In this document: piece by piece, positions 3,589 through 27,319 of the stretch
Position numbering within the stretch: the first letter of the stretch is position 1
How the letters are laid out: each line of letters begins with the position of its first letter
From: Bacteroidota bacterium
GTDB taxonomy: Bacteria; Bacteroidota; Bacteroidia; Chitinophagales; UBA2359
Direction of reading: 5' to 3'
Length of the DNA: 27,556 nt
Assembly: GCA_020631245.1 (NCBI GenBank)
Contig: JAHDHP010000017.1
Span: 1-27,556, forward strand
The notes under the pieces: model-generated
The model's input: the letters and a program-made list of their open reading frames with translations, nothing else
Databases searched by the model: none
Told to the model about the DNA's origin: nothing
Program-made: the position numbers and the translations under genes

Positions 3589-5532
3589 ATGATTCCTCAA
3601 ACTACCATCGCTAGTATCATGGAAGCCGCTCGCATTGAAGAGGTGGTAGGTGATTTTGTTACACTCAAAAAAAGAGGAGTCAATTTCATAGCTTGTTGCC
3701 CTTTTCACAATGAAAAAACACCTTCCTTTACCGTTTCTCCTACCAAAAACATTTACAAATGTTTTGGCTGTGGTGAAGCAGGTAGTCCAACCAATTTTGT
3801 GATGGAGCATGAAAATATGACCTATCCTGATGCCCTCCGCTATCTCGCTCAAAAATACAATATAGAAATAGCAGAAGTAGATAACGAAAAAGGACGAGAA
3901 GAACGACAAGCAAGAGATAGTCTATTTATCATTAATAATTTTGCACAAGAACATTTTCAAAACAACCTACAACATACCGATGAAGGTATTAGTGTAGCAC
4001 TCAGTTATTTCCGCTCTAGAGGTTTTAGTGATACGACTATCCAAAAATTCCAACTCGGTTATAGTATCGAAGATTGGGATACCTTTATTAAGGCAGCTCA
4101 AGAAAAAGGATACCGCCTTGAACTACTCAAAAAGTTAGGACTCGCTGGTGAAAAAAATGGTCGTTTCTATCCTTTCTTTCGCGGACGTGTGATGTTTCCC
4201 ATTCACGGACTTTCTGGTAAAGTGGTGGCCTTTGCAGGTCGTACCCTCAAAAAGGAAAAGAAATCCCCCAAATATGTCAATTCTCCCGAAACAGAAATTT
4301 ACAACAAAAGTAAAGTACTCTATGGGATGTTCTTGGCCCGTCAGGAGGTCAGAAAACAAGATGATTGTATTCTAGTTGAAGGGTATACCGATGTTATTTC
4401 ACTCCATCAAGCAGGTATCGAAAATGTCGTTGCCTCCTCTGGAACCTCCCTTACTCCCGATCAAGTCCGCCTCATCAAACGCTACACACCCAATATCACT
4501 ATCCTCTATGATGGTGATGCAGCAGGTATCAAAGCAGCTCTCAGAGGCGTGGATATTATCCTTTCTGAAGGGATGAATGTGAAAGTAGTGATCCTTCCTG
4601 AAGGGGAAGATCCCGATTCCTTTGTACAAGCAAAAGGACGTACTGATTTTCTAGCTTATGTCAAAGAGACGCAAAAAGATTTCATCTTTTTTAAGGCAGA
4701 TCTTCTCCTAAAAGACGCAGGAGATGATCCAGTAAAAAAATCGGCAGTCATTCAAGATATAATTAAGACACTTGCTAAGATTCCCGACCCTATCAAACGG
4801 GCTTTATATGTCAGAGAATGTGCAAATCTGCTTGATATAAGTGAACGCTTGATCATTACCCAAACCAATAAGATCAAGTACAACCAAATTCAAAAAAACA
4901 AAGAAAGAAAAGAACTTCAAGCAGCACAAGAAGCTCATCTGCCTGCTAGTCTCCAAGAGTTAGAAGAAATTCAAAAAGCAGCTCCTAAAGAAATAAAAAA
5001 ACAAATTACTGGACTAGATGTATGCGAACGGGATTTAGTGCGTTTACTGCTTGAGTTTGGAGAAGAGTTTTATGACATTGATTACTATGTCGCTGTTTAT
5101 ATTATCCAACAAACATTGGACTTACCTCCTACCAATCCGATCTATCAAAAAATGGTGAATTTATATCGTCAACATTTAGAGGAAGGAAAAACACTCTCTA
5201 AAGATTTCTTCCTAGAATACCAAGACCCACAAATTAATAAAGCAACCATAGATCTCCTCTCTTCTCCTTATGAACTAAGTGAAAATTGGAAAATAAAACA
5301 TGAAATATTTGTAACTCAAATTGTTACAAACTTCAAACCTGAAGTAGAAAACTTAGTAGATCGTTATAAACTCAGATGGGTATTGAAAATGAAAGATGAA
5401 AATCAAGAAAAAATTAAACTAGCTCAAAAATCCAATGACTTAGATATAATAGAACTGTTGAAGAATCAATTACAATATGAAGAATGGATAAAACAATTAA
5501 CAAGTAAGTTAAAGGGAGTAATAATTCGGTAA
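3589..5532 (+). CDS. dnaG: DNA primase DnaG
   Basis: CHC2 zinc finger 'CCPFHNEKTPSFTVSPTKNIYKCFGCGEAG'. Toprim 'LVEGYTDVISLHQAGIENVVASSGTSLT' and 'LYDGDAAG'. 647 aa. Confidence 0.95.
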   Translation: MIPQTTIASIMEAARIEEVVGDFVTLKKRGVNFIACCPFHNEKTPSFTVSPTKNIYKCFGCGEAGSPTNFVMEHENMTYPDALRYLAQKYNIEIAEVDNEKGREERQARDSLFIINNFAQEHFQNNLQHTDEGISVALSYFRSRGFSDTTIQKFQLGYSIEDWDTFIKAAQEKGYRLELLKKLGLAGEKNGRFYPFFRGRVMFPIHGLSGKVVAFAGRTLKKEKKSPKYVNSPETEIYNKSKVLYGMFLARQEVRKQDDCILVEGYTDVISLHQAGIENVVASSGTSLTPDQVRLIKRYTPNITILYDGDAAGIKAALRGVDIILSEGMNVKVVILPEGEDPDSFVQAKGRTDFLAYVKETQKDFIFFKADLLLKDAGDDPVKKSAVIQDIIKTLAKIPDPIKRALYVRECANLLDISERLIITQTNKIKYNQIQKNKERKELQAAQEAHLPASLQELEEIQKAAPKEIKKQITGLDVCERDLVRLLLEFGEEFYDIDYYVAVYIIQQTLDLPPTNPIYQKMVNLYRQHLEEGKTLSKDFFLEYQDPQINKATIDLLSSPYELSENWKIKHEIFVTQIVTNFKPEVENLVDRYKLRWVLKMKDENQEKIKLAQKSNDLDIIELLKNQLQYEEWIKQLTSKLKGVIIR

Positions 5533-5787
5533 TATTATATATATAAACACTTCAAAAAACACTTCTTGTAGAAAAAGAATCCTACATTCATTTTTTCGCC
5601 ATATCATGAAACTTTTTTAAAAAAAACTCAGTTCTTTCAATACAAACCATTTGAAAAACCAATACTTACAAATAACAATGTAACGCTATATCCATTTATC
5701 TCTCCTGTGATATGAAGAAGCTTAATATCTACTAGCATCTTTTTTGCTATACATAAAAAGATATCATTCACCTATCCAAATACCTAC

Positions 5788-6459
5788 ATGACGGAACTCA
5801 TTCAACACGCATTTTCGCCAGCTAATATAATTCCCACCATACTATTATTAGTATGTATTTTTTATGGAATTATGGTCATACTGGGTGCATTAGATATTAG
5901 TTTTCTCGACTTTGACATTGATGCTGATGTAGACATAGATGCCGAAATTGATGTAGATGTTGACGTAGATGCAGATACCGATGTAGGCAGTAATAATGGT
6001 GGAGGTCTAATAGGAATTCTAAAGTTTTTCAATATAGGAGATATCCCCTTCATGATTTTTATGTGTATCCTAAGTCTTTCACTTTGGCCCTTATCTATTA
6101 CAGCCAATTACTTATTAGGAAACAGCAGTCTTTTACTCGGATTACTCCTATTAATCCCATTGCTTCTCGTCAGTTTATTTATCACAAAAATACTCTCTAC
6201 ACCACTGGTTAAAGTATTCAAACATATGAATACAGCTCATAAGGATGTAGACTTAATAGGCAGTATAGCCACCATTATATTACAAACTTCCAATCAAAAA
6301 ATAGGGCAAGCAGAAGTTGTCACACATGATAATAACTCTTTAGTAATCAATGTGCGAGCAACAGAAGATCAGATGCTAACAAAGGGTAGACAATGTCTCA
6401 TCATTGATAGACAAGAGGACGGTATCTATCTTGTAGAAGCATACGAAGGGAAGTTTTAA
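5788..6459 (+). CDS. NfeD-like membrane protein (YuaF/NfeD2-like partner of flotillin) with an acidic (D-I/V-D)n insert
   Basis: 223 aa. N-terminal transmembrane segments. C-terminal soluble beta-rich domain 'IGQAEVVTHDNNSLVINVRATEDQMLTKGRQCLIID'. Sits immediately upstream of the flotillin gene. Contains the repeat 'DFDIDADVDIDAEIDVDVDVDADTDV'. Confidence 0.75.
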   Translation: MTELIQHAFSPANIIPTILLLVCIFYGIMVILGALDISFLDFDIDADVDIDAEIDVDVDVDADTDVGSNNGGGLIGILKFFNIGDIPFMIFMCILSLSLWPLSITANYLLGNSSLLLGLLLLIPLLLVSLFITKILSTPLVKVFKHMNTAHKDVDLIGSIATIILQTSNQKIGQAEVVTHDNNSLVINVRATEDQMLTKGRQCLIIDRQEDGIYLVEAYEGKF

Positions 6460-9726: not shown

Positions 9727-9950
9727 TGAGTGAGGGATAGTAGTGGTAGCTTGACGAAACAGCCGCTTTGTGAAGTAATGACTAGCAGGGCTGACAGCGG
9801 AAGACACTGCTAGGCATATACTGAACTAGCGGATGTGAGACAACTACAAACGAATAGCCCGACCTGTATAAAAAAAGTGTGATTTTATGCCCCCAGCGAA
9901 GACGCTGGCGGGAACATGAAATCACACTTTTTTTATACAGGGCACTCCCA
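9727..9950 (+). repeat. B-element copy (structured intergenic repeat: conserved scaffold plus variable hairpin)
   Basis: 'gtgagggatagtagtggtagcttgacgaaa..ctagcagggctgac..gacactgctag..acaaacgaatagcccgacc'. A 22-bp perfect hairpin follows ('ctgtataaaaaaagtgtgattt' / 'aaatcacactttttttatacag'). Ends with 'gggcactccca'. Confidence 0.75.
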
Positions 9951-11631: not shown

Positions 11632-13662
11632 TTAAAGGATAATCACTCCAGGTAACTTCTCTTGTAAGTTTGCTATTTCAAACCCCTTTCTTCGATCTAG
11701 CAAACCACCTACATTAATGCGTTTTAAGTTAGGCAATTGACTTATTACCTCTGGTAACTCACTAAAGCTAGTATGCTTTATATCTAAATAAGTGAGGTTT
11801 TCCAATTGAGCAAAATCAGCAGGTAATGAGGAAATCCAAGTAAATCCAAGATATAATTGTTGTAGGTTTTTGAGACGCCCAATTCCTTCGGGCATAGAAC
11901 GAAACTCATGATGACTAAGTATTAAACATTCTATATCTTCTAATTCATAGATGATAGTCGGAAATTCTTTTAGAGACATATATTGCAGGTTCAAGCGTTT
12001 TTGGTTGTAAAGAGGACTCAAGATTTCCATCTTTTTTTCCTTCGACACCTCTTTGCTTTCCAACAAAATATCCGCACAACGATTATAACGCTTATACACT
12101 ACCTCCGCTATTTTCCAAGCTGGGATACCACTTGTTCGTGCGTTATCATCCATTTTTCGACGCAGAAAGTAAGCCATTTTATTAGGCTCAAATTTTTTAT
12201 GCTTCAACTTCATCGCTGACTGCATCTTTTCATCTCCATACAACTTTAACAACTTCTTGGCTTCTGCTCGATTAGTCCGACTTGTTCCAATCAAATAATT
12301 GATATACACTAATGGAATGAGTTCTTTGGGCAATCCTCCTCCTCGCATCATTTGTAAAGCAATTCCCACATTATCATCATCACCCGTTTTCATTAAGGTC
12401 TCAATCTGTTCGATGAAACCATTCTCCTCGACTGTCGCATCCAATAAATAGGCATCTTCTACTTCATTAAAGTAGCTCTGTAATTCTACATCTGTTACAA
12501 AAACAATCCCCTCTTTGCCCAATCCTTCTACATACTTACTATGCTTTCCAAGCAATACATGGGTGGTATTTTTAGTCACCTTCGACCCTAATTTTGCTTG
12601 TAAGCCTTCTAGTTTTTCTTTGATTTCTTTGCGGGTAAAAATAGCCCGACCAAACATTGCCAACTCGTCACCTGCCTGAATAGGCCGGTCTTTTAACGAA
12701 GGACTTTTTAAATACTTCTTTGCATTTTTAAAAGCACGTTCACTATTCATGGGCAAAATAGCCGCTATTTCTGCTCGCGAATAAGTCGTTAACAAATCTT
12801 CTTTTGCCCCCTCATATACTTCGTAAATCGGATATCGCATTTCTTTGGGAACCTTCTTCTTACCTAGAAATTCCAACAAATCATTAAAGTCTCTTTCTGT
12901 TATCCCTGCTGGAAGAATATTCGCTCCTACAGAAACTCGTGATAATTTTGGAAAATAAAGTAAGCTTTTCTGAAAGCCTTCTATTCGATTTCTAAAAATG
13001 CTTAAAAATTCAAGGGCTTCTAGTTGGGTCAAAAAATCAGGTATAGTAGTCAATTGATTCGCTCCAATAACCAAATCTCTCAAAGCACTACATTTACTCA
13101 ATTCTGCTGGCAATTCTGTTAGCTCCATACGTCCTGCGTATAATTGCTCCAATTTGGTCAATTGACCTATTTTGGGGGAAAGAACCTTGATTGGGTTTTG
13201 AGGAATACGTAAAAAAACTAGATTTTCTAAATCGAATAACTCATCGGGTAATTCGGTTAACAGGTTGTTGCCAAGTATTAGGTGCTTTAAGCTTTTACAT
13301 TTTCCAATTTCAGGTGGAATAACAGTCAATTGGTTACCACTTATATCCAAGTACTCTAACTGTGTTAAATTACCAATACTTGCAGGTATTTCTTTGATCT
13401 TATTACTAGAAACATTCAAACGTTTTAGCGACGGGAAATCACCTAAGTTACTAGGAAGTGCTTCCAGCTTATTGTTGTTGTAATTAATATACTCTAGCTT
13501 CGTTAACTGCACCAACTCTGCTGGAAATTCGCTCATCGCATTGTAAGCAAAATTCAATGACTCCAAATTCACACATTCCAATATATTTTTAGGAAAATGT
13601 TTTCGATTGGTACTTTGTTTATATATAGCTTTTATCTCTTTAGGATCTTCGTTTAATTTCAT
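11632..13662 (-). CDS. LRR protein paralog 1. N- and C-terminal leucine-rich repeats flank a central BRCT-like / 'GGGLP' module.
   Basis: 676 aa. Repeats of the form 'LxxLxLxxNxLxxLPxxIGxL'. Central 'KNTTHVLLGKHSKYVEGLG' (BRCT-like) and 'ALQMMRGGGLPKELIPLVYINYL'. Shares its architecture with the ORFs at 22350-24623 and 24878-27319. Confidence 0.85.
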   Translation of the reverse strand: MKLNEDPKEIKAIYKQSTNRKHFPKNILECVNLESLNFAYNAMSEFPAELVQLTKLEYINYNNNKLEALPSNLGDFPSLKRLNVSSNKIKEIPASIGNLTQLEYLDISGNQLTVIPPEIGKCKSLKHLILGNNLLTELPDELFDLENLVFLRIPQNPIKVLSPKIGQLTKLEQLYAGRMELTELPAELSKCSALRDLVIGANQLTTIPDFLTQLEALEFLSIFRNRIEGFQKSLLYFPKLSRVSVGANILPAGITERDFNDLLEFLGKKKVPKEMRYPIYEVYEGAKEDLLTTYSRAEIAAILPMNSERAFKNAKKYLKSPSLKDRPIQAGDELAMFGRAIFTRKEIKEKLEGLQAKLGSKVTKNTTHVLLGKHSKYVEGLGKEGIVFVTDVELQSYFNEVEDAYLLDATVEENGFIEQIETLMKTGDDDNVGIALQMMRGGGLPKELIPLVYINYLIGTSRTNRAEAKKLLKLYGDEKMQSAMKLKHKKFEPNKMAYFLRRKMDDNARTSGIPAWKIAEVVYKRYNRCADILLESKEVSKEKKMEILSPLYNQKRLNLQYMSLKEFPTIIYELEDIECLILSHHEFRSMPEGIGRLKNLQQLYLGFTWISSLPADFAQLENLTYLDIKHTSFSELPEVISQLPNLKRINVGGLLDRRKGFEIANLQEKLPGVIIL

Positions 13663-14694: not shown

Positions 14695-17600
14695 ATGCAG
14701 TTAATACAAGAAGTCCATTTGCATTTCCAAGATGCAAAGTCTGATAAGGTTTACGAAGTATATTTATACGAAGTAGGCAACGACCAATATCTCGTCAACT
14801 TCAAATACGGACGTCGAGGAGCCAATTTAAAAGAAGGCACCAAAACGGATCAACCTGTAAACCGAGCAAAGGCAGATAGTATATTTGAGAAGTTAGTAAG
14901 TTCCAAAACAAAGAAAGGTTATCAACAAGTACAAACTAATACTACTTCCTCCACTCCTCCCCCTCCAAGTTCCAATTGGGATCGTGAAGCTGCCACACAT
15001 GTCTTATTAACTTATCTTCAAGAAGCAATTAATAATCCAACGTCAAAGCCTTCTGAGCCAAAGAAAGACACTACTAATTCAAACAATAATAATCGTAATA
15101 AACCGCAGTCAGTTTGGGGAGCAATTACCAAATGGATAAAAGGGGAAGATACGACAAACAATAATCCTACTAGTAGTGCCACAAATGATGATACACCTCG
15201 TCAGCGACCAATAAGTCGAATTGTATGGCGTGTTGGAGAATTGCGTATAAAAGAAGCAACTCCACTCCTACTTCAGCTTCCTATTACCGACAAAATAATC
15301 GATCAATATAGCCTTGTTTGGGCATTGGGACGATGTGGTGATCCGAGTGCGATCCCTACTTTAGAAAATATGTTATCTGCTAAAGATGGGATTCCAGCCG
15401 TTCAACTATTGGCTGCCGAAGCCAAAATGGCTTTACTCGATAAAGCGGGGCAAAAATCTTGGAGTGAAGTGCTATTCAAAGCCCTTCCTATTGCCTTCCA
15501 AAATCATATACAAACTGAAAATATTGGAGGATTAATCAACTCCATCAATGAGCAAATAGAAGATAAAAAAGAAGCCTATCAACTCATTGCACATCTCTAC
15601 CTTATTTCTAACCATTATACAACTGCCAAACAAGCTGTTCATCAATGGGTGCAGGCTGCTCCTTTCAAAGGAAGTGGTTATTTCAAAAGTATTCGACAAT
15701 TATATAAAACAGCAGAATTCCGAGATGATGCAGCTTTATGGGGCTTGATAGTTCATCGTGTCTACACTTCTCGCGCTCCTTTCTACATCACTACTTGGAG
15801 TTATTACTATCGTAATGATGGTAAGATTCACTGTAACTCCGTGTTTTTCCCGAATGAAAATAGCAAGCGCAAAGGCTATGACAAGGATTACAACTATGTG
15901 CGTGGTGATTATATTCGAACTTTAGATGAGGTAAAAAAACCCAATTCACGGCTTGGCTTTTCGGAAGGAAGCAAAAAATATATTCAAAAACGAAGCTGGC
16001 GTGTTATCAAACGTCAAGCAGAAGCTGGAGAAGCAATGACCTATGTAAAAATGGCGGTTGGCTTTTTACTTGCCTTCACTGATGAGGACAAACAAGACAT
16101 TCCTCCTTTCGAATTTTATCGTTACAAACGCGTAGATGGTCGCTGGCGAAGTATTCGAGAATTGATCCACTACCCACCCTATGCTAACTATAGCACCTTT
16201 AATCATATTCTATATAGCAATAGCCCTCGTTTCGAATACCGAAACAATAATAATTGGGTGTATAAAAAAGAGGTGAGTAAAGATACGCCAGCTCCTACTA
16301 CTCGTGAAGAAGCTTACCCGCATTTCTGGGATGAAATACCACAAGGCATCCTTCACCTATTAGCAGAAAGCAACTGTGAAGCAGTCAATGAATTTGCTGT
16401 AAAAGCAGCAAAAGCGAATCTTAATAAGATAACTCCTCTCATCAATGTAGCATTTATCAAATTGCTACTCAATAAAAAATACAAGGATACTGCCTTATTG
16501 AGCATTGAACTAGCCAAAGCAATTTATGACCCATCTAATCCAGATACAGAGCTTATTTTAGCTCTCTTGAATGCAGTTGTACCAGAAGCGCGAAATTTAG
16601 GACTAGAGTGGTTACGCGTACAAAAAGATTTTTATTTCCAAGATGCTGATTTTGTAACGGCTTGTGTATTCAATCCTCATAAAGATATTCAAGAGGAATT
16701 AGACAACTTGCTAGGTAATCATACCTTTAGTGATGATCTAAATACTGCTATTGTTGCCAAAGTAACCGCTCGTTTATTGGCTTATCCTGCCGAAGTTACC
16801 GACGAAGATCGAAAAGCGATATTACAGGCAGCCGAATACCTCAATAAACACTTTACAGCTACACTTCAGCAAACGAGTATACAAACCATTCAGGATTTCT
16901 TGGACCACCCTGTTTCTGAGGTCAAAGTTTTTGGAGCCAAAATATTACTCAATCACCCTACTGATATAAAAGACTTACCTGAACAAACCATTGCTTCATT
17001 GATTAATGGGGAGTCAGCAGAAATGCGAGCAGTAGGAACACAATTACTAGGAAAACTTCCAAAAGAAGAATTACTAAAGAAGCAAGAATTACTAAAAGAA
17101 CTGTGTTTATCACCTCATCCAGAGGTACGTCAAAGCATCCAAAAAGTCATTGCCGAATTAGCCAATGAAAACAAGGAGTTTGGAGATAGTTTTACCCAAC
17201 AAATTGTTCCTCAATTATTGAAGCGAGAAGAACACGAAGGACGTGATACAGATATAAGTACCCTATTAAAAGATCATTTGAGTGCGCATCTACCTACCAT
17301 TCCTTTGCGTATGATTCTCAAATTGATTTACTCGCCTCGCCAAGCTGCCAATCAAATGGGTGGATATTTACTGGTCAGCCATGTTAAAGAACCTGACCTG
17401 AAAATGCGACAAATTGTACGCTTGGCAAATCATGAAATGCAGGAAATACGCGATTGGGTAAAAGCAGCTTACAATAATAATATTCCACGAGTTAAATACG
17501 AACTCAAAGAATCGATTCGCTTAGTGGATGCCAAATGGGATGATAGTCGTGAGTTCGCTTTCAACTATTTCCGTCAACAACTGAGCAAAGAAGATTGGAC

Positions 17601-18075
17601 GCCAGATATTTTGGTGAGTATTTGTGATAGTGTCAATGTACCTGTACAGCAATTTGGGAAAGAAATGATTACTCGCTTTTTTGAAGAGAAAAACGGCGAA
17701 CAATATCTCCTTCAGCTTAGTCAACATCCTACTGCTGATCTCCAAAGCTTTGCCACCAATTACTTGGATCGTTTCGCCTCTGATAATCCAGAAAATATCG
17801 TCAAACTAGAATTATATTTCGTTACTGTACTATCTGGTGTTAATAAGTCAAGAGTGGCTAAAAAACGCATCTTCGAATTCTTGAGAAAAGAGGGTTTGAA
17901 GAGTGAAGAAACAGCTAAACTGGTAGCGGGAATCCTAAAAAGACAATCAGCTACTATGGCAATTGGAGATAAGGCAAAGTGTATCAGTATTATGCGTGAT
18001 TTAGATGCCATTTATCCGAATTTAGAGTTGCCAATAAAGGTAAAAGAAGTAGCAGATTTCCCAATAAATACGTAA
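14695..18075 (+). CDS. WGR-domain protein with an S/T/N/P-rich linker, HEAT-like repeats and a long C-terminal region (MolR / DUF4132-like architecture)
   Basis: N-terminal WGR signature 'KVYEVYLYEVGNDQYLVNFKYGRRGANLKEGTK..KGYQQV'. Low-complexity segment at ~aa 80-180. PBS-lyase/HEAT-like 'WALGRCGDPSAIPTLENML'. 1126 aa, ATG start. Confidence 0.85.
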   Translation: MQLIQEVHLHFQDAKSDKVYEVYLYEVGNDQYLVNFKYGRRGANLKEGTKTDQPVNRAKADSIFEKLVSSKTKKGYQQVQTNTTSSTPPPPSSNWDREAATHVLLTYLQEAINNPTSKPSEPKKDTTNSNNNNRNKPQSVWGAITKWIKGEDTTNNNPTSSATNDDTPRQRPISRIVWRVGELRIKEATPLLLQLPITDKIIDQYSLVWALGRCGDPSAIPTLENMLSAKDGIPAVQLLAAEAKMALLDKAGQKSWSEVLFKALPIAFQNHIQTENIGGLINSINEQIEDKKEAYQLIAHLYLISNHYTTAKQAVHQWVQAAPFKGSGYFKSIRQLYKTAEFRDDAALWGLIVHRVYTSRAPFYITTWSYYYRNDGKIHCNSVFFPNENSKRKGYDKDYNYVRGDYIRTLDEVKKPNSRLGFSEGSKKYIQKRSWRVIKRQAEAGEAMTYVKMAVGFLLAFTDEDKQDIPPFEFYRYKRVDGRWRSIRELIHYPPYANYSTFNHILYSNSPRFEYRNNNNWVYKKEVSKDTPAPTTREEAYPHFWDEIPQGILHLLAESNCEAVNEFAVKAAKANLNKITPLINVAFIKLLLNKKYKDTALLSIELAKAIYDPSNPDTELILALLNAVVPEARNLGLEWLRVQKDFYFQDADFVTACVFNPHKDIQEELDNLLGNHTFSDDLNTAIVAKVTARLLAYPAEVTDEDRKAILQAAEYLNKHFTATLQQTSIQTIQDFLDHPVSEVKVFGAKILLNHPTDIKDLPEQTIASLINGESAEMRAVGTQLLGKLPKEELLKKQELLKELCLSPHPEVRQSIQKVIAELANENKEFGDSFTQQIVPQLLKREEHEGRDTDISTLLKDHLSAHLPTIPLRMILKLIYSPRQAANQMGGYLLVSHVKEPDLKMRQIVRLANHEMQEIRDWVKAAYNNNIPRVKYELKESIRLVDAKWDDSREFAFNYFRQQLSKEDWTPDILVSICDSVNVPVQQFGKEMITRFFEEKNGEQYLLQLSQHPTADLQSFATNYLDRFASDNPENIVKLELYFVTVLSGVNKSRVAKKRIFEFLRKEGLKSEETAKLVAGILKRQSATMAIGDKAKCISIMRDLDAIYPNLELPIKVKEVADFPINT

Positions 18076-18163: not shown

Positions 18164-19804
18164 ATGTTATTCAATTACAAATATAGTGGAAGTACTTCAG
18201 TAGAGAGCAATAGTAGCTCTACCAATATGTCTTTCGCACCAGATACGCTTCGAGAACCCACCTTTTTTCGAGGTACACTAGCCAAAAACATTCCCTTTCG
18301 GGAAGCTATCTCTGCGCTTCATGATGTAGTAGTATCTGACCTACGTTGGAAACCCAAAGATCGCGAGGAATATAAAGCTTGGGCAGCACAACAAGAACAA
18401 CTATACCTAGAAACGATACAGTCTCAAAAAAGTGCTAATGAGGAAAAAATTAAGGAAGTACGTGCCAAGTTAAATGTCTTAAATGACCAGTCAAATGCCA
18501 TCATGGCTCCTTATTATACTGCACGACGAAAGTACTTCGACTATATCTACAAAAAAGATCGTGACGCTTGGTTTGTACTAGATCCAGTCATTACTGTACA
18601 CCCTGACGAAATCTTTTACGAGTGTTTTAGCCAAGATGAATCCACTTATGGACGCTTGGGTTGTAGCTATGAGGTCTTTAAAAATATCAACGAATTTGAG
18701 TGCGGTACTACGAATATCGACTACTCGGATGCCCTATACAAAGAATTTCAAAAAATACGCGACTACAAAGAAACTGACTTTGTTGTTGACCCAAGTGGCT
18801 TTGAAGTAACCACTGAAAACGAAGACACTTACAAAGAGCTAAAGATTGACCTCCCAGATAGTTGGGTACGTGGCTTCTTACAAGTAAGCTCAGCCATGAC
18901 ACTCGACACTACTGAGTTTAATCTACATCCTCTCGATGTCTACAATTTCTTATTCATTCTCAAACGTTTCAAAGAGAAAAAAGGACCTCGTTCCATTCGC
19001 TTCAAATTGAAACCAGGAGCACCTATCAAAGCTGTGTTTGAGCCGTGGAATTATGAAATAGTTTGTGATCGTAGTATTTACCCAGGAAACGAAGAGAAAG
19101 AAATCCGCATTTGGGGACGCCGTCGCCTACTAATTTTGGAACGTCTTATTCCTGTAACCAAAACCTTCAAAGTACGCCTTTTAGGAACAGGACTCCCCTC
19201 TTTCTTTATCGCTGATTTAGGAAATATGTCCTTTACATTAGGTTTATCGGGCTGGACTAAAAACGACTGGTCACGAGCAGGCAATTTCGACTTGATGGCT
19301 CCACGTGCCGAAGTCGATTTATTCACCAAGAACAAAGTCTTCCAATCACTCAAAGAAGACTGGCGCATGTCGGCAGATGATTTGTCGAAGAAAATGAAAC
19401 TCGACAAAGCCATCATTACAGGTGCATTATCTGCCTACACACAAGCAGGAAGTGTTATGTACGATATGAACAAAGACATGTATCGAGTACGAGAGCTAAG
19501 TCGTGAGCCACTACCTTTTGAGAAGCTTCGTTTTTCGAATGAGCGTGAACAACTTGCCAACGAATACCTCAAAGATGAGGCAGTAAAAGTGGAAGTAGAA
19601 TATCCAGGTGATGGCGTGAAAAAACTGAAAGGAGTGGTTGAAAGTCGCTCCAATCGAAAGAAATTTAATACCGAATTGGTGATTGATGGCGACCAGCGTT
19701 TGGTCAAAGCCAACTGCAATTGCCGATTCATACAAAAAAACAAATTGTTTAAAGGTCCTTGTGAGCATATTCTAGCCACCCGCTTAAAAAGCAATCAAGG
19801 ATAA
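18164..19804 (+). CDS. SWIM zinc-finger protein (YehQ-like)
   Basis: C-terminal CxC-x(n)-CxH signature 'CNCRFIQKNKLFKGPCEHILATRL'. 546 aa. Its stop codon lies about 10 bp before the first unit of the repeat array. Confidence 0.8.
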   Translation: MLFNYKYSGSTSVESNSSSTNMSFAPDTLREPTFFRGTLAKNIPFREAISALHDVVVSDLRWKPKDREEYKAWAAQQEQLYLETIQSQKSANEEKIKEVRAKLNVLNDQSNAIMAPYYTARRKYFDYIYKKDRDAWFVLDPVITVHPDEIFYECFSQDESTYGRLGCSYEVFKNINEFECGTTNIDYSDALYKEFQKIRDYKETDFVVDPSGFEVTTENEDTYKELKIDLPDSWVRGFLQVSSAMTLDTTEFNLHPLDVYNFLFILKRFKEKKGPRSIRFKLKPGAPIKAVFEPWNYEIVCDRSIYPGNEEKEIRIWGRRRLLILERLIPVTKTFKVRLLGTGLPSFFIADLGNMSFTLGLSGWTKNDWSRAGNFDLMAPRAEVDLFTKNKVFQSLKEDWRMSADDLSKKMKLDKAIITGALSAYTQAGSVMYDMNKDMYRVRELSREPLPFEKLRFSNEREQLANEYLKDEAVKVEVEYPGDGVKKLKGVVESRSNRKKFNTELVIDGDQRLVKANCNCRFIQKNKLFKGPCEHILATRLKSNQG

Positions 19805-19814
19805 ACAAACGAAA

Positions 19815-20001
19815 GAGCTTGCAATCTATGGGCGGTGTATCACCGCTTTTGTTGACAATCTTAGCATACACCACTAGCCGTCTCTTTAAGATGCGATCTA
19901 GCACTACTATCGGGTTTTCTGGCTCGATTTCATAAATCAAAACCCGATAGTAGTGCGAGATCGCTTGGAGTTGAGTCATCTAGTACCGAGCTTCATCGAA
20001 G
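19815..20001 (+). ncRNA. Array unit 1 (putative retron ncRNA). Unique hairpin at 19893-19974.
   Basis: 26-bp stem 'gcgatctagcactactatcgggtttt' / 'aaaacccgatagtagtgcgagatcgc' with one mismatch. 20-nt loop 'ctggctcgatttcataaatc'. Confidence 0.6.
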
Positions 20002-20055
20002 CCTTTTCGTTTCATTCTTTATTTCGTTATTTGACATTTTTAAAACCATACGCAC

Positions 20056-20242
20056 GAGCTTGCAATCTATGGGCGGTGTTTCGCCGTTTTTGTTGACAAT
20101 CTTAGCATACACCACTAGCTACCTCTTTAAGTTGCGTACTATCAGATATATTCGGTTTTCTGTTTGGCTTTCGTCAAGCTAAACCGAATATATCTAATCG
20201 TCCGCTTGGAGTTGAGTCATCTAGTACCGAGCTTCATCGAAG
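20056..20242 (+). ncRNA. Array unit 2. Unique hairpin at 20134-20205.
   Basis: Basal 'gcg/cgc', then an interior loop. 15-bp perfect stem 'agatatattcggttt' / 'aaaccgaatatatct'. Loop 'tctgtttggctttcgtcaagct'. Confidence 0.6.
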
Positions 20243-20276
20243 TACACGCGTATGGTTCTCGTAATTTACACCTACT

Positions 20277-20465
20277 GAGCTTGCAATCTTTGGGTAGTGT
20301 TTCGCTACTCTTGTATACAATCTTAGCATACACCACTGGCCACCTCTTTAAGGTGCGAGACAATGCAAGATGGTGCAGTTTTCGGCATGTCTTTCGTAAA
20401 GAAAAACTGCACCATCTTACAGTCTCGCTTGGAGTTGAGTCGTCCAGTTCTGAGCTTCATCGAAG
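20277..20465 (+). ncRNA. Array unit 3. Unique hairpin at 20355-20427.
   Basis: 'gcgagac' / 'gtctcgc' basal stem, then an interior loop. 16-bp stem 'aagatggtgcagtttt' / 'aaaactgcaccatctt'. Loop 'cggcatgtctttcgtaaagaa'. Confidence 0.6.
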
Positions 20466-20508
20466 TAAACAGGTGTAAATTACTTATTCAACTATTTCAC
20501 ACAAGAAA

Positions 20509-20696
20509 GAGCTTGCAATCTTTGGGCGGTGTATCACCGCTTTTGCTGACAATCTTAGCACACATCACTGACTGCCTCTTTAAGTTGCGTGATAGACAAC
20601 TATGTCGGAATTCCTGTTCGGTTTTCGTAAACCGATTTCCGACATAGTTATCATCCCGCTTGGAGTTGAGCCATCCAGTACCGAGCTTCATCGAAG
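20509..20696 (+). ncRNA. Array unit 4. Unique hairpin at 20587-20659.
   Basis: Basal 'gcg/cgc', then an interior loop. 14-bp stem 'aactatgtcggaa' / 'ttccgacatagtt'. Loop 'ttcctgttcggttttcgtaaaccgat' with the nested mini-hairpin cggttt/aaaccg. Confidence 0.6.
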
Positions 20697-20759
20697 TACA
20701 CTTGTTGTGAATAGTTGATTTTTTAACACCACTTTTTCTCATTAAAAAATTGTTTTATT

Positions 20760-22283
20760 TTGTCTCAACCCAAAACTCGACAAGAACTATACGAACAAAT
20801 TCGTCAAACATCTAAGGCAGAGTTTATTTTATCAGAAATGATTCGACTTGGATTTTGGGAGGAAGGAGATGGGCAACCTTCTCTTCCTACTGCATTCATT
20901 AAAGAACGTGCTGATTTACACCGTGAACTCAGCAAGTTGATGTCTACTGCGCGAAAGCTGGACAATCCAGACCAAGTGCTAAAAGAGTATCGTCAAAAAC
21001 GCCTTAAAGAGTCGAACGAAAAACAACAGGAAAATCGAGAAAGACGAGAAAAAGAACGCTTAGAACGAGCCGAAAAATGGAAGGAGCGAAAAAGTAAAGA
21101 GATTGTTTACTTAGGTGAAGAAATTTCAGGTGGATTAAATGAAACCGACGCGAATGAAGAACAACTCAAGCGTTTTGGTTTACCCAACTTTGAAAACGCT
21201 GCGATTTTAGCGGAAGCAATGGGAATTGATTTGGGGAAATTGCGCTTTTTGGCTTACAACCGTAAAGTGAGTAAGGTATCGCACTACAAACGCTTTTACA
21301 TGGCTAAAAAGTCGGGAGGCAAACGACTCATTTCTGCTCCGATGCCACAGCTCAAAGGTGCCCAATATTGGGTATTAGAAAACATTCTAAACAAAGTCAA
21401 TATTCACGAAGGGGCGCATGGTTTCCGTCAAGGGCATTCGATTGTCTCTAATGCTCAAAATCACGTCGGACAGGATGTAGTGATTAACTTCGATTTCAAA
21501 GATTTTTTTCCCACTATTACTTTTAAGCGGGTAAAAGGCTGTTTTGTCAACTTGGGCTATTCGGAGCAAATCGCAACCATCTTTGCAGCCCTTTGCACCG
21601 AACCCGATGTAGATGAGGTCGAAATGGATGGACATACTTATTATGTCGCTAAAGGACCGCGTCACCTTCCACAAGGCGCGCCTACCAGTCCTGCATTGAC
21701 CAATATAATTTGCTATAAACTTGATGCACGCATGGCGGGTATGTGCAAAGTGCTAGGTTTTAATTATTCGCGTTATGCGGATGATATGAGTTTTTCTGCT
21801 TCAGGTGATGCGGTTAAAGATGTGGGACGACTCATTTGGTCGGTTCATCAAACTGCCGAATCGGAAGGCTTTATGATTCATCCTGATAAAACGCGGGTGA
21901 TGCGCAAAAACCAACAGCAAGAGGTGACTGGCATTGTCGTGAATGAGCAATTGGGGATTGATCGGAAGGAGTTGAAAAAATTTCGAGCTTTATTACACCA
22001 AATTCGCCAAACAGGTATGGCTGGTAAGACCTGGGGGGCTGGTAAGGATTTGGCTGCTTCTATCTGGGGTTATGCTAATTTTGTGGCGATGGTCAAACCT
22101 GAAAAGGGGGCAAAATTGGTCGCTGAAGTGAAGCAAATTTTAGGTAAACAAACGCCTAGTAAGCCTGCTGGTTCGTCGGAAGGAGAAAAAGATTTGGCTC
22201 GTAAAATTGCAGCGGAGAAGGAACGATTAGAGCAAAAGAAGAAGGAGGAAGATGATAAAAAAGATAATTGGAAAATGTGGTAA
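20760..22283 (+). CDS. Retron-type reverse transcriptase with a ~160-aa N-terminal coiled-coil extension and a ~100-aa K/E-rich C-terminal extension
   Basis: RT motifs 'KRLISAPMPQLKGAQYWVLENIL', 'FRQGHSIVSNAQNHVGQDVVINFDFKDFFPTI' (NAxxH), 'LPQGAPTSPALTNI', 'YSRYADDMSFS' (YADD) and 'QEVTGIVVNEQLGI' (VTG). The ORF begins at a TTG at 20760. The first in-frame ATG is at 20838. Confidence 0.85.
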   Translation: MSQPKTRQELYEQIRQTSKAEFILSEMIRLGFWEEGDGQPSLPTAFIKERADLHRELSKLMSTARKLDNPDQVLKEYRQKRLKESNEKQQENRERREKERLERAEKWKERKSKEIVYLGEEISGGLNETDANEEQLKRFGLPNFENAAILAEAMGIDLGKLRFLAYNRKVSKVSHYKRFYMAKKSGGKRLISAPMPQLKGAQYWVLENILNKVNIHEGAHGFRQGHSIVSNAQNHVGQDVVINFDFKDFFPTITFKRVKGCFVNLGYSEQIATIFAALCTEPDVDEVEMDGHTYYVAKGPRHLPQGAPTSPALTNIICYKLDARMAGMCKVLGFNYSRYADDMSFSASGDAVKDVGRLIWSVHQTAESEGFMIHPDKTRVMRKNQQQEVTGIVVNEQLGIDRKELKKFRALLHQIRQTGMAGKTWGAGKDLAASIWGYANFVAMVKPEKGAKLVAEVKQILGKQTPSKPAGSSEGEKDLARKIAAEKERLEQKKKEEDDKKDNWKMW

Positions 22284-22340
22284 ACACGGAGTGCACAGAG
22301 AGGGGAACACGGAGCGCACAGAGAGGGGAACACGGAGCGC
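22284..22340. repeat. Short tandem repeat of ~22 bp, about 2.6 copies ('acacggagcgcacagagaggggaac')
   Basis: 'aacacggagtgcacagagaggggaacacggagcgcacagagaggggaacacggagcgca' lies between the RT stop and the convergent LRR gene stop. Confidence 0.6.
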
Positions 22341-22349
22341 ATGAACGGG

Positions 22350-24623
22350 CTATAAGTCCCAGCCATACTCTTCTTGAAATCGTTGATTGTTTTTAAGTTC
22401 TCTTTGAAAAACTTTATGATAATGATGGTAGCAGAAATAGAATATCGGTAAGTGATCTATTTCTGCTTCTTTTGTTTGTAGCTTTATTTTTCTATTATTA
22501 TCTATCTCATCTAAGTTAGGATTGAAAAGTTGATGTTTTCTAGCCATTACCTTCCTTATTTTTTCGGAACCATATAAACGCAATAAATTGGCGGCTGCCT
22601 GTTTATTGGTTTTGTCTTCAGCCAATTTATAAATTGCTAGTAATAGTGGTACTATTTTTTTGGGTACTCCTCCCCCTTCCAGCATTCCTAGACCTATAGC
22701 TACATTTTCTGCTTCTGGATTTACTAATAAATTAATGAGCATTGATAAATCTACCATTTCATCTTCCGCAAGGAGGAAAGGGGTTTCATGTTGATGGAGA
22801 AATTGAAGGAACTGTGGTTCTAAAAAGAAGACCAATCGTTCTTTATTTAGATCTTTGGTAATTGGTACATTTTTACCTAGTAAAACATGCGTTGTATTAT
22901 CAGTAATTTTAGTGGTGGAAGCAATATTTAAGTCTGTCAATTTTTCCCTGATTTCTTTTCTGGCGTGAACCGTCTTACCTAATATCAATACTTCTGAATT
23001 TTCTGTAAGTGGTTGTTCGGAAAAGGTGGGCGACTGTACCGCTAGATTCACAGCTGCTTTATGTTTTAATTCGGAAACGGGGAAAAATAAAGCGGGTAGT
23101 AAATCTACTCGTTTTAATTGCACAATCTGCTCCTCTTGTTCATTTAAAATGTGTAGCATATTTCGCTGTACCTGCCACGGTATTTGCTCTTTCCACTTGG
23201 AGAGAGCTTGTACGAATAAAAAGTAAGCACGTGTTAATAAAATAGGTTCTTCGAAATCAGTAATTCCTAGTCCTTTTAATTCATAATCAGGTGTAACTAT
23301 TATTTTTTTAGGAATCCATGAAGCTAAAGCAGGGTAAGTTTCTATAAGCGTAGCTAGTTTTCGAAAATAGAAAGCTCCTGTAGGAATATTTTCGAGATGT
23401 TTATTGGTGAGCGATACCGTTTTTATATGCTTGGCTAATGCTAGTGAAATGGGATAGGTTTTAAGTGGATTATCCTGAGCACAGATCATACGACACTTAG
23501 GCAGATCGCCAATGGTCTCTGGAAGCGATTCGAGTTTATTTTTACGACAATCTAAGAATTTGAGTTTAGGAAGCTGTCCTATTTCATTAGGGAGTTTATT
23601 AAACTCTCCCCAAGCCATATTTAAAGATTCTAAGCTGGTGAGTTGCCCAATACTGGAAGGAAGTGTCTCCATTTGACTATTGTTCAATTGGAGTAATTTT
23701 AGCTTCTTGAGCTTTCCAATGGTAGGTGGCAGACTTTTGAGGGGGGTAGCAGCTAATTGTAAGTTTTCGAGTTTGGGCAAGTTACCTATTTCAAGGGGTA
23801 AATCTTGGAGTGGGTTATGATTAAGATTTAAGATCTTTAGGTGGTTTAAGTTTTCAATGCTTACAGGGAGCGTTTGGAGTTGGCAATAAGCCAGTGATAA
23901 TGTATTTAAACGCATCATATCTCCTATTGATGCGGGAAGTTCAGTCAGTGGATTTTCTTGTATACTCAGTTCTTTAAGTTTGTGAAGTTTGCCAATGGTG
24001 TTGGGTAGTCTTGTGAGTTTGTTTTTATTCAAGTCTAGTAGTTCTAAGTATTGGAGATAGGCTATCTCATTAGGAAGCTCTTTAAGTTGATTGTTGGTAA
24101 GATTTAATCGCTGCAAGAGGCGCATGTTTCCTATTTCTCTGGGTAGTGTTTCTAGGTGATTACCCAGCAAATGTAAAGCGATTAACTCATGGAAATCGCT
24201 AATAGTTGTGGGAAGTGTTTTTAGATAATTGTGGGACAGATTTAATTCAAAGAGCCGTTTTAATTGTCCCATTTCGAGGGGTAGTGTTTGTAATTGGTTA
24301 TTAGACACATCGAGCAATCGGAGGTGCTTTAATTGTCCTATTTCGGGGGGTAATTGTGTTAGTTTATTCCAAGTAAGTTTGAGTACACGTAGCTTTTTAA
24401 GTTGCCCAATTTCGGGGGGTAAACTGTTGAGTTGATTGCTGCTAAGATCAAGTGTTTCAAGGTTTTTAAATTGACCAATTTCAGGTGGTAAACTGGTAAG
24501 GTGATTGTTGGACAGATTTAATTCCTGCACAGCTCCGCCTTTACCGAATATTTCGGCAGGTATTTCGGTAAGCTGTTGATGATTGAATTTGAGTTGCATG
24601 GAGGAATGAATAGAACATGCCAT
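22350..24623 (-). CDS. LRR protein paralog 2. ~350 aa of N-terminal LRRs plus a C-terminal BRCT-like / 'GGGVP' module.
   Basis: 757 aa. About 14 repeats of the form 'LxxLPPEIGQLKxLxxLxLxxNxL'. 'DNTTHVLLGKNVPITKDL' and 'GLGMLEGGGVPKKIVPLLLAIYKL' are shared with the other two paralogs. Confidence 0.85.
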   Translation of the reverse strand: MACSIHSSMQLKFNHQQLTEIPAEIFGKGGAVQELNLSNNHLTSLPPEIGQFKNLETLDLSSNQLNSLPPEIGQLKKLRVLKLTWNKLTQLPPEIGQLKHLRLLDVSNNQLQTLPLEMGQLKRLFELNLSHNYLKTLPTTISDFHELIALHLLGNHLETLPREIGNMRLLQRLNLTNNQLKELPNEIAYLQYLELLDLNKNKLTRLPNTIGKLHKLKELSIQENPLTELPASIGDMMRLNTLSLAYCQLQTLPVSIENLNHLKILNLNHNPLQDLPLEIGNLPKLENLQLAATPLKSLPPTIGKLKKLKLLQLNNSQMETLPSSIGQLTSLESLNMAWGEFNKLPNEIGQLPKLKFLDCRKNKLESLPETIGDLPKCRMICAQDNPLKTYPISLALAKHIKTVSLTNKHLENIPTGAFYFRKLATLIETYPALASWIPKKIIVTPDYELKGLGITDFEEPILLTRAYFLFVQALSKWKEQIPWQVQRNMLHILNEQEEQIVQLKRVDLLPALFFPVSELKHKAAVNLAVQSPTFSEQPLTENSEVLILGKTVHARKEIREKLTDLNIASTTKITDNTTHVLLGKNVPITKDLNKERLVFFLEPQFLQFLHQHETPFLLAEDEMVDLSMLINLLVNPEAENVAIGLGMLEGGGVPKKIVPLLLAIYKLAEDKTNKQAAANLLRLYGSEKIRKVMARKHQLFNPNLDEIDNNRKIKLQTKEAEIDHLPIFYFCYHHYHKVFQRELKNNQRFQEEYGWDL

Positions 24624-24877: not shown

Positions 24878-27319
24878 CTATGGCACAAAAATAATTTCAC
24901 AGTAGGGAATGATTTCTTGTCCTAACTGATAGAGTAATCGCTTTTGTTCTGGGTTAGTAGCTGAAAGGGTTAATTTACGTAAATTTTGCAGTTGTTGAAA
25001 GGATTCAGGGATTTCGGTGATATTATTATGAGAAATATCGAGGGTTTGGAGTTTGGTAAGTGGCGTTAATTCTTCTAAATCCCCATTATCTAGTTGAATA
25101 TCTCGTAGTATTAATTGACGTAACTGTGTTAGATTACTGAGTCCTTTGATTTGAAATTCATTATCTATTTCTGATAGTTCGAGTGATTCCAAGCCTTTGA
25201 TTTGAAATATATTATCTTGGAAACTATTGATCGCTTTTCTACCTCGCCAAACGATTTTTTTGAGGGCATTTAGCTCGGTAAAAGATGGTGGCATTTTCCA
25301 AAGACTGTTATGAATTAGTTGTAGTTCTTCTAATTGTTGAAGCTGATGTATATTCTTGGGCAAACTACCTAACATCGTTTTTTGAATAATGAGTTGGCGC
25401 AAGTTGGTCATGTTTCCGAGGGAATCTTGATCGGTTCCGCCCCAATAACAATCATTTATTTTTAAGATTTCCCAACGATTTTGTTGCCCAATAATGACAG
25501 GAAAATTGTCGAACCGCATATTATCAAGGCTCAATTCCTTGTTCACTTCGTACATAGAAAGTATCTGTAACTTACCACTGTCTTCGATATAGGTATCTTC
25601 CAACAATAAAGCGTGTATGTTGGACTTTACTCGCTCGATGAGGTGTTTGGTAAGGAGTGTTTGATCTAAATTTGTTTGTTTGGCAAGTAACTGAATCTTT
25701 TTGCCGATGGGTTCTGGATGTGGATCGTCGAGTCGCCAATTTGAATTGAGTGCGTAACTAAGTAAATAGGAGCCATTGAGTTGTAGTAATTTCCTTAAAT
25801 TTGTCCTTACTTTTCCTTTGGAAGTTTTGAAAATAACCATTAATAAGGGAAGCATTTCGGGAGGTACGCCTCCTCCTCGTAGCATTTCGATGGCTAATAA
25901 TATATTTTCATTTGTTTGATTATTAAGCAATATACTTACCTTTTTAACTAATGTTTCTCGCTCTTCATTCTCGCTCATTTTGATATATGCTTCTTCTTTT
26001 TCTTCGAGAAAAAAGAGTAATTGTTGTTCGTTGAGAAAAATTAAATTGCTGTAATTTAATGCGGGCATTTTTGTTTTGACGAACTTTCCAATGAGGACAT
26101 GGCTGGTATCTTTGTCGAAGGTATTGCTATACTTTATCTGTTGGGCTTCCAGCCGTTCTTGAATGGTTTTCTTTTTTTGTATAGTGTTTCCTAAAAAGGT
26201 AATTTTACTAGCTGACGATAGGTTTTGAGCATCAAAATGTTTACAAAGTGTTTGGACAATATTGTCTTGTACTATTTTGTGTGGGAAATGGAGGTATTCG
26301 AGTAGAAAATTGTGTGGTAATTGTTGAATATAGTCTTGGTTGTTGACAAATATTTGAAAGAGAGAATAACGAATTGAGAACGATGTATCTTGTTTTTTAA
26401 AACAGCGAATGAGCTTGTAAAATATGCGGTAATGTGGATCGGGCATAAATTTCTCATGCCCTTTTATATGCTTAATATTATTGAGTTGGAGTAACTCAAG
26501 GGGCATCTCCGTAATATTGGTTCCGCCTATTGCTAGGCTACGCAGCTTTTTTAACTTGCCAAATGTGGTAGGTAATTTTTGGATGGGATTGTTTGATAGT
26601 CCTAGTAATTTGAGTTGTTTGTAGTTGCCAATGTTTTGGGGTAATTTTTGAATTTGGTTATCATTTAGCTTTAGATTTTCGATGGTACTTTTTTGTTCAC
26701 TTCCTATTTCGGCTAAGGCAATGATTTTGTTTTTGGTAGCAACGATGGTATGCATGGAAGAATTGGATAATAAGGCAGCGGGTAAAATGCTTAATTGGTT
26801 TTCCTCTAACCATATTTCTTTTAGTTTTGGAGCGGTTCCTAGTCCTTTCTCAATTATGCTAATTGAATTGCAATTGACATTGATGATTTTGAGCTGTGGC
26901 AATTGAGATAAAATAGCAGGTAATATTTCCAGCTTATTACTTTGTATGACTAACTCCTCCAAGTTTTCACATTCTAAAATCTCTTCTCCAATATGACTTA
27001 TTTTATTAAAGCTTAGATCGAGCTTTTTGAGATATTTGAAATGTTCGATTCCTTTAGGCAAAGCCGTTAAGCGATTGTTTTGCATTTTCAAATGAGTAAG
27101 CTTGGTACAATCGCTAATACTTGGAGGAAATACTAATGTATTGGCGTCTCCGTATAAATTACGAATACTTAAGGACTCTAATTGCCTCAAATTTCCAATT
27201 TCTTTGGGTATTTCTTTGATGTCGTTATTACCCAATATTAAGGTTTTCAGCTTGGTATACTCAAATACCTCGGCAGGTATTTTATCCATTTTTTTATAGG
27301 AGAGATCGAGACGGGGCAT
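24878..27319 (-). CDS. LRR protein paralog 3. N- and C-terminal LRR blocks flank the central BRCT-like / 'GGGVP' module.
   Basis: 813 aa. 'KDTSHVLIGKFVKTKMP' and 'LAIEMLRGGGVPPEMLPLLMVIFK' are shared with the other paralogs. LRRs 'LxxLxLxxNxIxxLPxxxGxL' at both ends. Confidence 0.85.
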   Translation of the reverse strand: MPRLDLSYKKMDKIPAEVFEYTKLKTLILGNNDIKEIPKEIGNLRQLESLSIRNLYGDANTLVFPPSISDCTKLTHLKMQNNRLTALPKGIEHFKYLKKLDLSFNKISHIGEEILECENLEELVIQSNKLEILPAILSQLPQLKIINVNCNSISIIEKGLGTAPKLKEIWLEENQLSILPAALLSNSSMHTIVATKNKIIALAEIGSEQKSTIENLKLNDNQIQKLPQNIGNYKQLKLLGLSNNPIQKLPTTFGKLKKLRSLAIGGTNITEMPLELLQLNNIKHIKGHEKFMPDPHYRIFYKLIRCFKKQDTSFSIRYSLFQIFVNNQDYIQQLPHNFLLEYLHFPHKIVQDNIVQTLCKHFDAQNLSSASKITFLGNTIQKKKTIQERLEAQQIKYSNTFDKDTSHVLIGKFVKTKMPALNYSNLIFLNEQQLLFFLEEKEEAYIKMSENEERETLVKKVSILLNNQTNENILLAIEMLRGGGVPPEMLPLLMVIFKTSKGKVRTNLRKLLQLNGSYLLSYALNSNWRLDDPHPEPIGKKIQLLAKQTNLDQTLLTKHLIERVKSNIHALLLEDTYIEDSGKLQILSMYEVNKELSLDNMRFDNFPVIIGQQNRWEILKINDCYWGGTDQDSLGNMTNLRQLIIQKTMLGSLPKNIHQLQQLEELQLIHNSLWKMPPSFTELNALKKIVWRGRKAINSFQDNIFQIKGLESLELSEIDNEFQIKGLSNLTQLRQLILRDIQLDNGDLEELTPLTKLQTLDISHNNITEIPESFQQLQNLRKLTLSATNPEQKRLLYQLGQEIIPYCEIIFVP

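Follow-up and report, generated by a model that had tools for sequence, protein, structure and literature searches.

A tandem array of four related non-coding RNA (ncRNA) units was found directly upstream of a type XIII retron reverse transcriptase (RT) gene in a stretch of 27,556 nt from a Bacteroidota bacterium (contig JAHDHP010000017.1, assembly GCA_020631245.1). This whole stretch, and never the array alone, is called the window below. Judging from folding, covariation and base-pair composition, each unit appears to be a complete retron ncRNA, and the four units probably act as independent templates of the single RT, which would produce four distinct multicopy single-stranded DNAs (msDNAs) of about 130 nt. 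If this is true, a retron RT naturally serves several templates, as opposed to the usual association of one RT with one template RNA.

Organization of the ncRNA Array

The four homologous units were co-oriented and filled the interval between the stop codon of a SWIM-domain gene (19804) and the point where the RT gene begins (20760), in agreement with an earlier sequence-only reading of this DNA. Their cores were delimited with a profile hidden Markov model (HMM) and a covariance model (CM), with periods of 241, 221 and 232 nt, and only four matches to the unit model existed in the whole 27.5-kb window. The unit length of about 190 nt given in the sequence-only reading was correct for the cores but not for the full units, which measured 206-231 nt once the flanking a2/a1 repeats, located in what seemed to be spacer, were counted. 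The coordinates of the units are as follows, with minimum free energy abbreviated as MFE.

19807-20012, plus strand, ncRNA unit 1: a2 19807-19815; core 19816-20001; msr hairpin 19830-19848; msd approximately 19873-20001; a1 20003-20012; upper stem arms 19893-19918/19939-19964; MFE -77.6 kcal/mol, z -7.16, closed by a2/a1; CM score 174.5 bits
20044-20257, plus strand, ncRNA unit 2: a2 20044-20053; core 20057-20242; a1 20248-20257; a2/a1 duplex AACCAUACGC/GCGUAUGGUU; upper msd stem arms 20134-20158/20181-20205; MFE -69.9 kcal/mol, z -5.74; CM score 162.5 bits
20261-20483, plus strand, ncRNA unit 3: a2 20261-20273; core 20278-20465; a1 20471-20483; repeat of 13 nt, 13/13 complementary; upper msd stem arms 20359-20382/20403-20426; MFE -80.2 kcal/mol, z -6.37; CM score 173.6 bits
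20488-20718, plus strand, ncRNA unit 4: a2 20488-20505; core 20510-20696; a1 20701-20718; repeat of 18 nt; upper msd stem arms 20595-20613/20634-20652; MFE -80.8 kcal/mol, z -7.13; CM score 169 bits

The mean column identity among the four units was 75%, and all of them retained the 26 family-invariant columns. Approximately 80 nt at the 5' side and 41 nt at the 3' side were conserved in all four, and a central hairpin of about 70 nt varied from unit to unit. The shared scaffold and tail described in the sequence-only reading were both real, with the scaffold shorter than the 100 nt announced. Similarly, each unit did possess its own long hairpin, but the pairing was not perfect as had been claimed: the arms, 19-26 nt in length, were 88-96% complementary with small internal mismatches, and an independent inverted-repeat scan recovered all four. 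In addition, the hairpin had an interior loop, which was conserved, and a mini-hairpin at its apex, which covaried. Within the array, the stems were 54-64% alike, compared to 80-100% for the scaffolds. On either side of the conserved core, and abutting it, every unit had an inverted repeat of its own (9-18 bp); these a1/a2 repeats had been missed previously.

The copies were too divergent for Tandem Repeats Finder to detect the array. Three minus-strand open reading frames lying across it (20164-20478, 20363-20647 and 20497-20742) were dismissed as genes because they cross unit boundaries and variable stems.

Folding, Covariation and G-U Content of the Units

When folded with their flanks, all four units were closed by an a2/a1 stem and formed both an msr hairpin and a long msd hairpin, and none of 200 shuffled sequences folded as well (z of -7.2, -5.7, -6.4 and -7.1 for units 1 to 4). 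The a2/a1 duplex had a median length of 16 bp across 54 units from all loci, and was extended by a short CUU/AAG helix in which C-G to U-A swaps were seen. When 35 units were aligned with plain MAFFT, pairing was seen in 80.9% of the cells against 64.4% after shuffling, and the covariation score was 0.462, compared to 0.186 for shuffled and 0.11-0.19 for slid partners. The CM alignment of 50 matches showed 94.2% paired cells, a covariation score of 0.693 versus 0.181 after shuffling, and double changes in 47 of the 53 pairs. Single-sequence folding also gave a third helix in the msr and a small 3' hairpin, which were rejected owing to poor covariation support (61% and 70% paired, respectively). 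A scan of the whole window against Rfam (E<=1) returned no retron family and only spurious miRNA-type hairpin matches.

The helices differed sharply in their tolerance of G-U pairs. On the RNA side, the G-U fraction reached 17.7% in the msr hairpin and 7.2% in the a2/a1 duplex, whereas G-U pairs represented 0 of 404 pairs in the lower long-range msd helices and 9 of 1320 in the upper stem. A G-U pair in RNA turns into a C-A mismatch in the complementary DNA copy, and msd helices restricted to Watson-Crick pairs are expected if the reverse-transcribed strand has to adopt these helices as well. The near-absence of G-U pairs likely marks the msd region, whose boundary in unit 1 (approximately 19873-20001) would give an msDNA of about 130 nt. 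Such a difference between G-U-tolerant helices and Watson-Crick-only ones would provide a way to map the reverse-transcribed part of a retron ncRNA from sequence alone.

The RT-distal units of the arrays were indistinguishable in these respects from the templates found in single copy in related loci: their msd was 95.3% paired with 0.1% of G-U, versus 95.4% and 0.6% in single-copy units. Two sets of candidate branching Gs were identified in the window, one at positions 19815/20056/20277/20509, which was more widely conserved, and one corresponding to the G of an AGC triplet at 19817/20058/20279/20511.

The RT and Accessory Genes

Three plus-strand genes surround or precede the array.

14695-18075, plus strand, WGR + HEAT/ARM accessory gene: PADLOC WGR_XIII, E=0 (residues 1-1120); Pfam WGR and HEAT_2
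18164-19804, plus strand, SWIM-domain accessory gene, putative DEDE nuclease/effector: PADLOC SWIM_XIII, E 3.3e-235; Pfam SWIM
20760-22283, plus strand, retron RT, type XIII (clade 10): PADLOC RT_XIII, E 2.4e-194; Pfam RVT_1

The RT gene starts with a TTG codon at 20760. The RT_XIII model spanned residues 2-500 of the protein, and the next best PADLOC model reached only 1e-100. The motifs on which the sequence-only reading had relied to call it a retron RT were all located (SNAQNH, of the NAxxH type, QGAPTSP, YADD and VTG), and the profile search confirmed that the protein falls inside the retron clades, in type XIII. Its best NCBIfam matches were the retron St85 and Ec67 families, both under the cut-off, and its closest relatives of solved structure (PDB) were the RTs of retrons Ec86, Ec67 and Ec78. 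The SWIM protein carried the CxCx12CxH signature at residues 518-535 and a D-x7-D-x4-E...D...E motif from D140; no relative of it was found in the PDB, and the PDB matches of the WGR/HEAT protein were designed repeat proteins only.

A partner protein with a SWIM Zn-finger CxCx12CxH and a DEDE motif, preceded by a WGR-like protein with HEAT/ARM repeats, has been described in type XIII, the group of RT clade 10 to which Mx162, Mx65, Sa163 and Ne144 were assigned (Mestre et al. 2020, PMC7736814). By its gene content and models, the present locus is classified as a type XIII retron with the operon order WGR/HEAT - SWIM - four msr-msd units - RT.

Distribution of the Unit in Related Loci

Relatives of the RT were gathered from genome, metagenome and assembly collections, and about 650 kb of related loci were scanned with the HMM and the CM. 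All occurrences of the unit were on the strand of the RT, in the interval separating it from the SWIM gene. A single copy was present at the equivalent place in 19 loci with RT_XIII-like RTs, and several copies were present in every locus of the RT clade to which the window belongs; a CM search of related genomes had been put forward as a check in the sequence-only reading. The copy numbers were distributed as follows.

Single copy: L010 (Emticicia agri), L011, L012, L014, L015, L017-L019, L022-L026, L029, L031-L033, L042, L055
Two copies each: L003, L005, L009, L016, L095, L096
At least two copies each, cut by contig ends: L094, L097
Three copies: L093
Four copies: window, L001
Seven to eight copies: L008
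Eight to nine copies: L007

A neighbour-joining tree of the RTs placed the window, L001, L003, L005, L009 and L016 in one clade. These were the six array-bearing loci taken into the tree; L007 and L093-L097 were absent from it and were grouped by pairwise RT identity (55-92%). The source names within the array clade were Bacteroidetes, Chitinophagales and Saprospiraceae. Arrays of 2 to about 8 units thus appear, from the sequences gathered, to be the rule in one Bacteroidota RT clade (13 of 13 loci), down to 55% RT identity. In other parts of the tree, duplications that seem to be independent were noted in L013 and L030.

Several contigs terminated within arrays, and the metagenomic copy numbers are therefore lower bounds. 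The independent short-read assemblies L091, L006, L094 and L097 all ended in this manner, with L091 representing the RT of the window assembled a second time. Arrays are probably under-counted in metagenomes. In Emticicia agri, where the ncRNA is single, an extra gene was present between the WGR/HEAT and SWIM genes (L010 2614-4059), and its product associates a WGR domain with a beta-propeller.

Inheritance of the Stems and Dynamics of the Arrays

The sequence-only reading had considered the stems as hypervariable, and this view had to be abandoned: the stems are distinct between paralogues, yet are stably inherited between orthologues. The comparison of the window with L001 illustrates this situation. 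The RT proteins were 87% identical and the four-fold degenerate sites of the RT genes only 41% identical, whereas the identity of the best-matching hairpins amounted to 82% for unit 2 and L001b, 77-78% for unit 3 and L001d, and 91% for unit 4 and L001c. Unit 1 and L001a were less similar (approximately 57-62% identical), with many compensatory changes. In other pairs of loci, the stems of L009.2 and L096.2 were 94% identical at 78% RT identity, and those of L094.1 and L097.2 were 97% identical at 82% RT identity. Overall, orthologous stems were 77-99% identical although the synonymous sites of the RT were saturated, with the lower value of unit 1/L001a set apart.

The arrays themselves were rearranged between genomes. 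Units 3 and 4 appeared in swapped order in the window and L001. The RT proteins of L007 and L008 were identical, and L007 had one more unit, a duplicate with 96% identity. In L016, L095, L097 and L094, differing pairs of units were drawn from three stem types and carried on mosaic scaffolds, which fits unit loss by unequal recombination.

The L007 array showed additional irregularities. Its RT-proximal unit (5452-5934) was interrupted by about 370 nt of inserted sequence, which separated a 5' part (5452-5483) from a 3' part (5853-5934), and the unit preceding it (4697-4875) had a degenerate 5' end. A long-hairpin element of about 450 nt was observed inside the same array (4900-5345) and directly upstream of the RT of L002 (L002 1-310). 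The arms of this element gave sub-threshold matches to the Rfam family Flavo-1 on opposite strands (39.7 bits for a gathering threshold of 42), which suggests an insertion resembling a miniature inverted-repeat transposable element (MITE). The word CTACTATCGGG is common to this element and to the msd stem of window unit 1, possibly by chance.

A Proposed Model of a Multi-Template Retron and Its Alternatives

We propose that the array is transcribed together with the flanking genes. The distance between a1 and the next a2 was only 3-4 nt at two of the three junctions, and the array is therefore most simply read as one transcript. In this model, each unit would close through its own a2/a1 stem of 9-18 bp, and, these stems being specific to each unit, mispairing between neighbours would be prevented. 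The single RT would recognize the conserved msr part, through the UUGCA motif, an 8-bp hairpin and the lower msd helices, also conserved. It would prime from a G adjoining a2, for which each unit offers the two candidate positions given above, and would copy the msd from approximately the conserved ...CGAAG back to the ACUAG helix or its vicinity. The expected products are four msDNAs of about 130 nt with a common lower stem and a differing upper stem of 19-26 bp. As in other retrons, the complexes of msDNA and RT presumably hold or inform the effectors, here the SWIM and WGR proteins.

Several observations weigh against this model. The CM alignment is biased towards its own structure, a point tempered by the same picture in the plain MAFFT alignment. 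Among the candidate priming sites, the AGC triplet was kept only in close relatives, and the G located 4 nt before UUGC was missing from a few members of the family. Scans for sigma-70 promoters, terminators and the Bacteroidetes -7 motif TAnnTTTG neither revealed an enrichment nor located a motif inside the array, so that co-transcription is suggested by the spacing of the units. Finally, the homology to a validated msDNA template is indirect, passing through the type of the RT and the shared position of the ncRNA.

Three other explanations were considered. It is possible, although we find it rather doubtful, that all units are reverse transcribed but that the array only provides dosage or robustness, with stems that differ by drift between paralogues or because divergence limits recombination, and with no separate roles. 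Watson-Crick pairing was indeed the only structural requirement seen, and the slow evolution of a strictly paired stem could be enough to account for the high identity of orthologues; the conservation of the stems may reflect either sequence-specific roles or only such slow compensatory evolution. The two units of L007 with identical stems after a recent duplication, and the low identity of the unit 1 stems in the window and L001, also go in this direction. Less easily accommodated is the fact that distinct stem types stay 91-99% identical across genomes with saturated RT synonymous sites, and that related genomes keep different subsets of three stem types and show no homogenization. Gene conversion does not erase the stems, since they stay distinct within an array whose scaffolds are much more alike. 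A single working template, for instance the RT-proximal unit, accompanied by decaying duplicates or by RNA-only decoys or regulators of RT loading, seems to us improbable. This explanation would agree with the use of one ncRNA by every natural retron described (PMC7736814) and with the degenerate unit and the disrupted unit of L007, but the distal units keep 26 of the 26 family-invariant columns, their own a2/a1 stems and an msd as well paired and as poor in G-U as that of single-copy templates. Furthermore, many compensatory changes separate orthologues, and arrays persist down to 55% RT identity.

The sequence-only reading had also envisaged that the repeats could be a MITE-like tandem insertion. 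This origin, like any other selfish insertion of MITE or repetitive extragenic palindromic type unrelated to the RT, or an artefact of assembly, now has a negligible probability. Tandem repeats are admittedly error-prone in assembly, several contigs stop within arrays, and an apparently genuine MITE-like element of Flavo-1 type lies inside the L007 array. Against this, the unit occurred nowhere else in the 27.5-kb window or the 650 kb or so of loci; every copy was on the strand of the RT and between it and the SWIM gene, and the single-copy form holds the canonical position of a retron ncRNA in 19 loci. The units also differ among themselves, and independent assemblies, for example L001, contain the array as well.

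The reading that we prefer is that of four templates for one RT, as in the sequence-only reading, whose proposed computational checks had outcomes in its favour, and it leaves room for a more speculative extension, which we consider unlikely but worth stating. The array could be a germline-encoded repertoire of msDNAs, in which each upper stem is a separate sequence-specific sensor or bait, directed at various phage factors or at various partners of the SWIM/WGR effector, and which is reshaped between strains by duplication, loss and shuffling of cassettes. Were this true, the retron would be a multi-specificity immune locus instead of a single-ligand switch. The arrays in any case raise a testable question, namely whether the sequence identity of an msDNA matters, given that distinct stems are kept over long evolutionary times. 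They also offer a route into the type XIII retrons, the oldest known retron group (Mx162), for which, to our knowledge, no function has yet been assigned.

Sequences Flanking the Operon

The retron operon was flanked by three paralogous large proteins with leucine-rich repeats (LRR) and a BRCT domain, all encoded on the minus strand (11632-13662, 22350-24623 and 24878-27319); none of them was matched by HMMs of defence systems. A 23-nt tandem repeat, AACACGGAGCGCACAGAGAGGGG (22283-22341, 2.6 copies, 97% matches), begins at the stop codon of the RT and occupies the gap before the convergent LRR gene. Further upstream, a near-perfect hairpin of about 35 bp was observed at 9857-9943, downstream of a cyclophilin/PKD gene (MFE -54.4 kcal/mol, z -12.3), and gave spurious 'mir-553' Rfam matches on both strands.

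Comparison with Known Systems

The alternation of conserved repeats with unit-specific segments, and a copy number that varies by strain, give the array a superficial likeness to CRISPR arrays. Here, however, the segments are self-complementary hairpins stably inherited between orthologues, and there are no cas genes: PADLOC returned no match to cas or other defence models among the neighbouring genes. Phage and plasmid collections, queried with the array by BLAST, gave no match. The exact 19-20-nt stem arms were searched against IMG/VR, and a single match was obtained, between 20 nt of the unit 3 msd stem, in its 5' arm, and a phage structural-gene region (L092 7858-7877, IMGVR_UViG_3300028591_001542). 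It did not extend past 20 nt, about 0.1-1 such matches being expected by chance for four queries according to a rough estimate, and was rejected as a protospacer-like match.

Tandem ncRNAs beside defence RTs may have a precedent in a preprint (bioRxiv 10.64898/2026.09.22.753630). It contains the term 'ncRNA array' 10 times, refers 18 times to defence-associated reverse transcriptase (DRT) systems and twice to 'retron', with 0 occurrences of 'SWIM', 'XIII' and 'msDNA', and arrays of type XIII retrons apparently lie outside its scope. Tandem ncRNAs in a natural retron were not encountered in full-text searches of an incomplete literature, which included PMC7736814, a 2026 survey (10.64898/2026.05.14.725207) and a retron census.

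The locus shares with the type XIII retrons the RT family, the SWIM/DEDE and WGR-HEAT/ARM genes and an ncRNA on the strand of the RT, directly upstream of it, that is predicted to combine a2/a1 repeats with an msr hairpin and a long msd hairpin. An msDNA of about 130 nt, as predicted here, would be in the size range of Ne144 and Mx162. The difference lies in the number of templates, as the described members have one msr-msd per RT, whereas the window has four and its relatives 2 to about 8. In the array clade, each unit has in addition its own a2/a1 stem and its own stably inherited upper msd stem, the msDNAs being at this stage predictions. A natural multi-cassette retron is a departure from the one-template organization described for type XIII.

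The closest parallel is an engineered one. In the multitrons, a single retron RT makes use of tandem msr-msd arrays in E. coli (PMC10370050), which speaks for the feasibility of the proposed model. Both systems combine several msr-msd units per transcript with one RT that uses each unit independently to make a different RT-DNA, the transcript and the RT-DNAs being predictions in the natural case. The multitrons are synthetic, based on retron Eco1, loaded with donor cargo and built with identical msr and a1/a2, whereas the natural arrays possess unit-specific a2/a1 stems and diverged scaffolds. These two features, which would limit misfolding and recombination, may serve as natural design rules for multiplexed retron editors.

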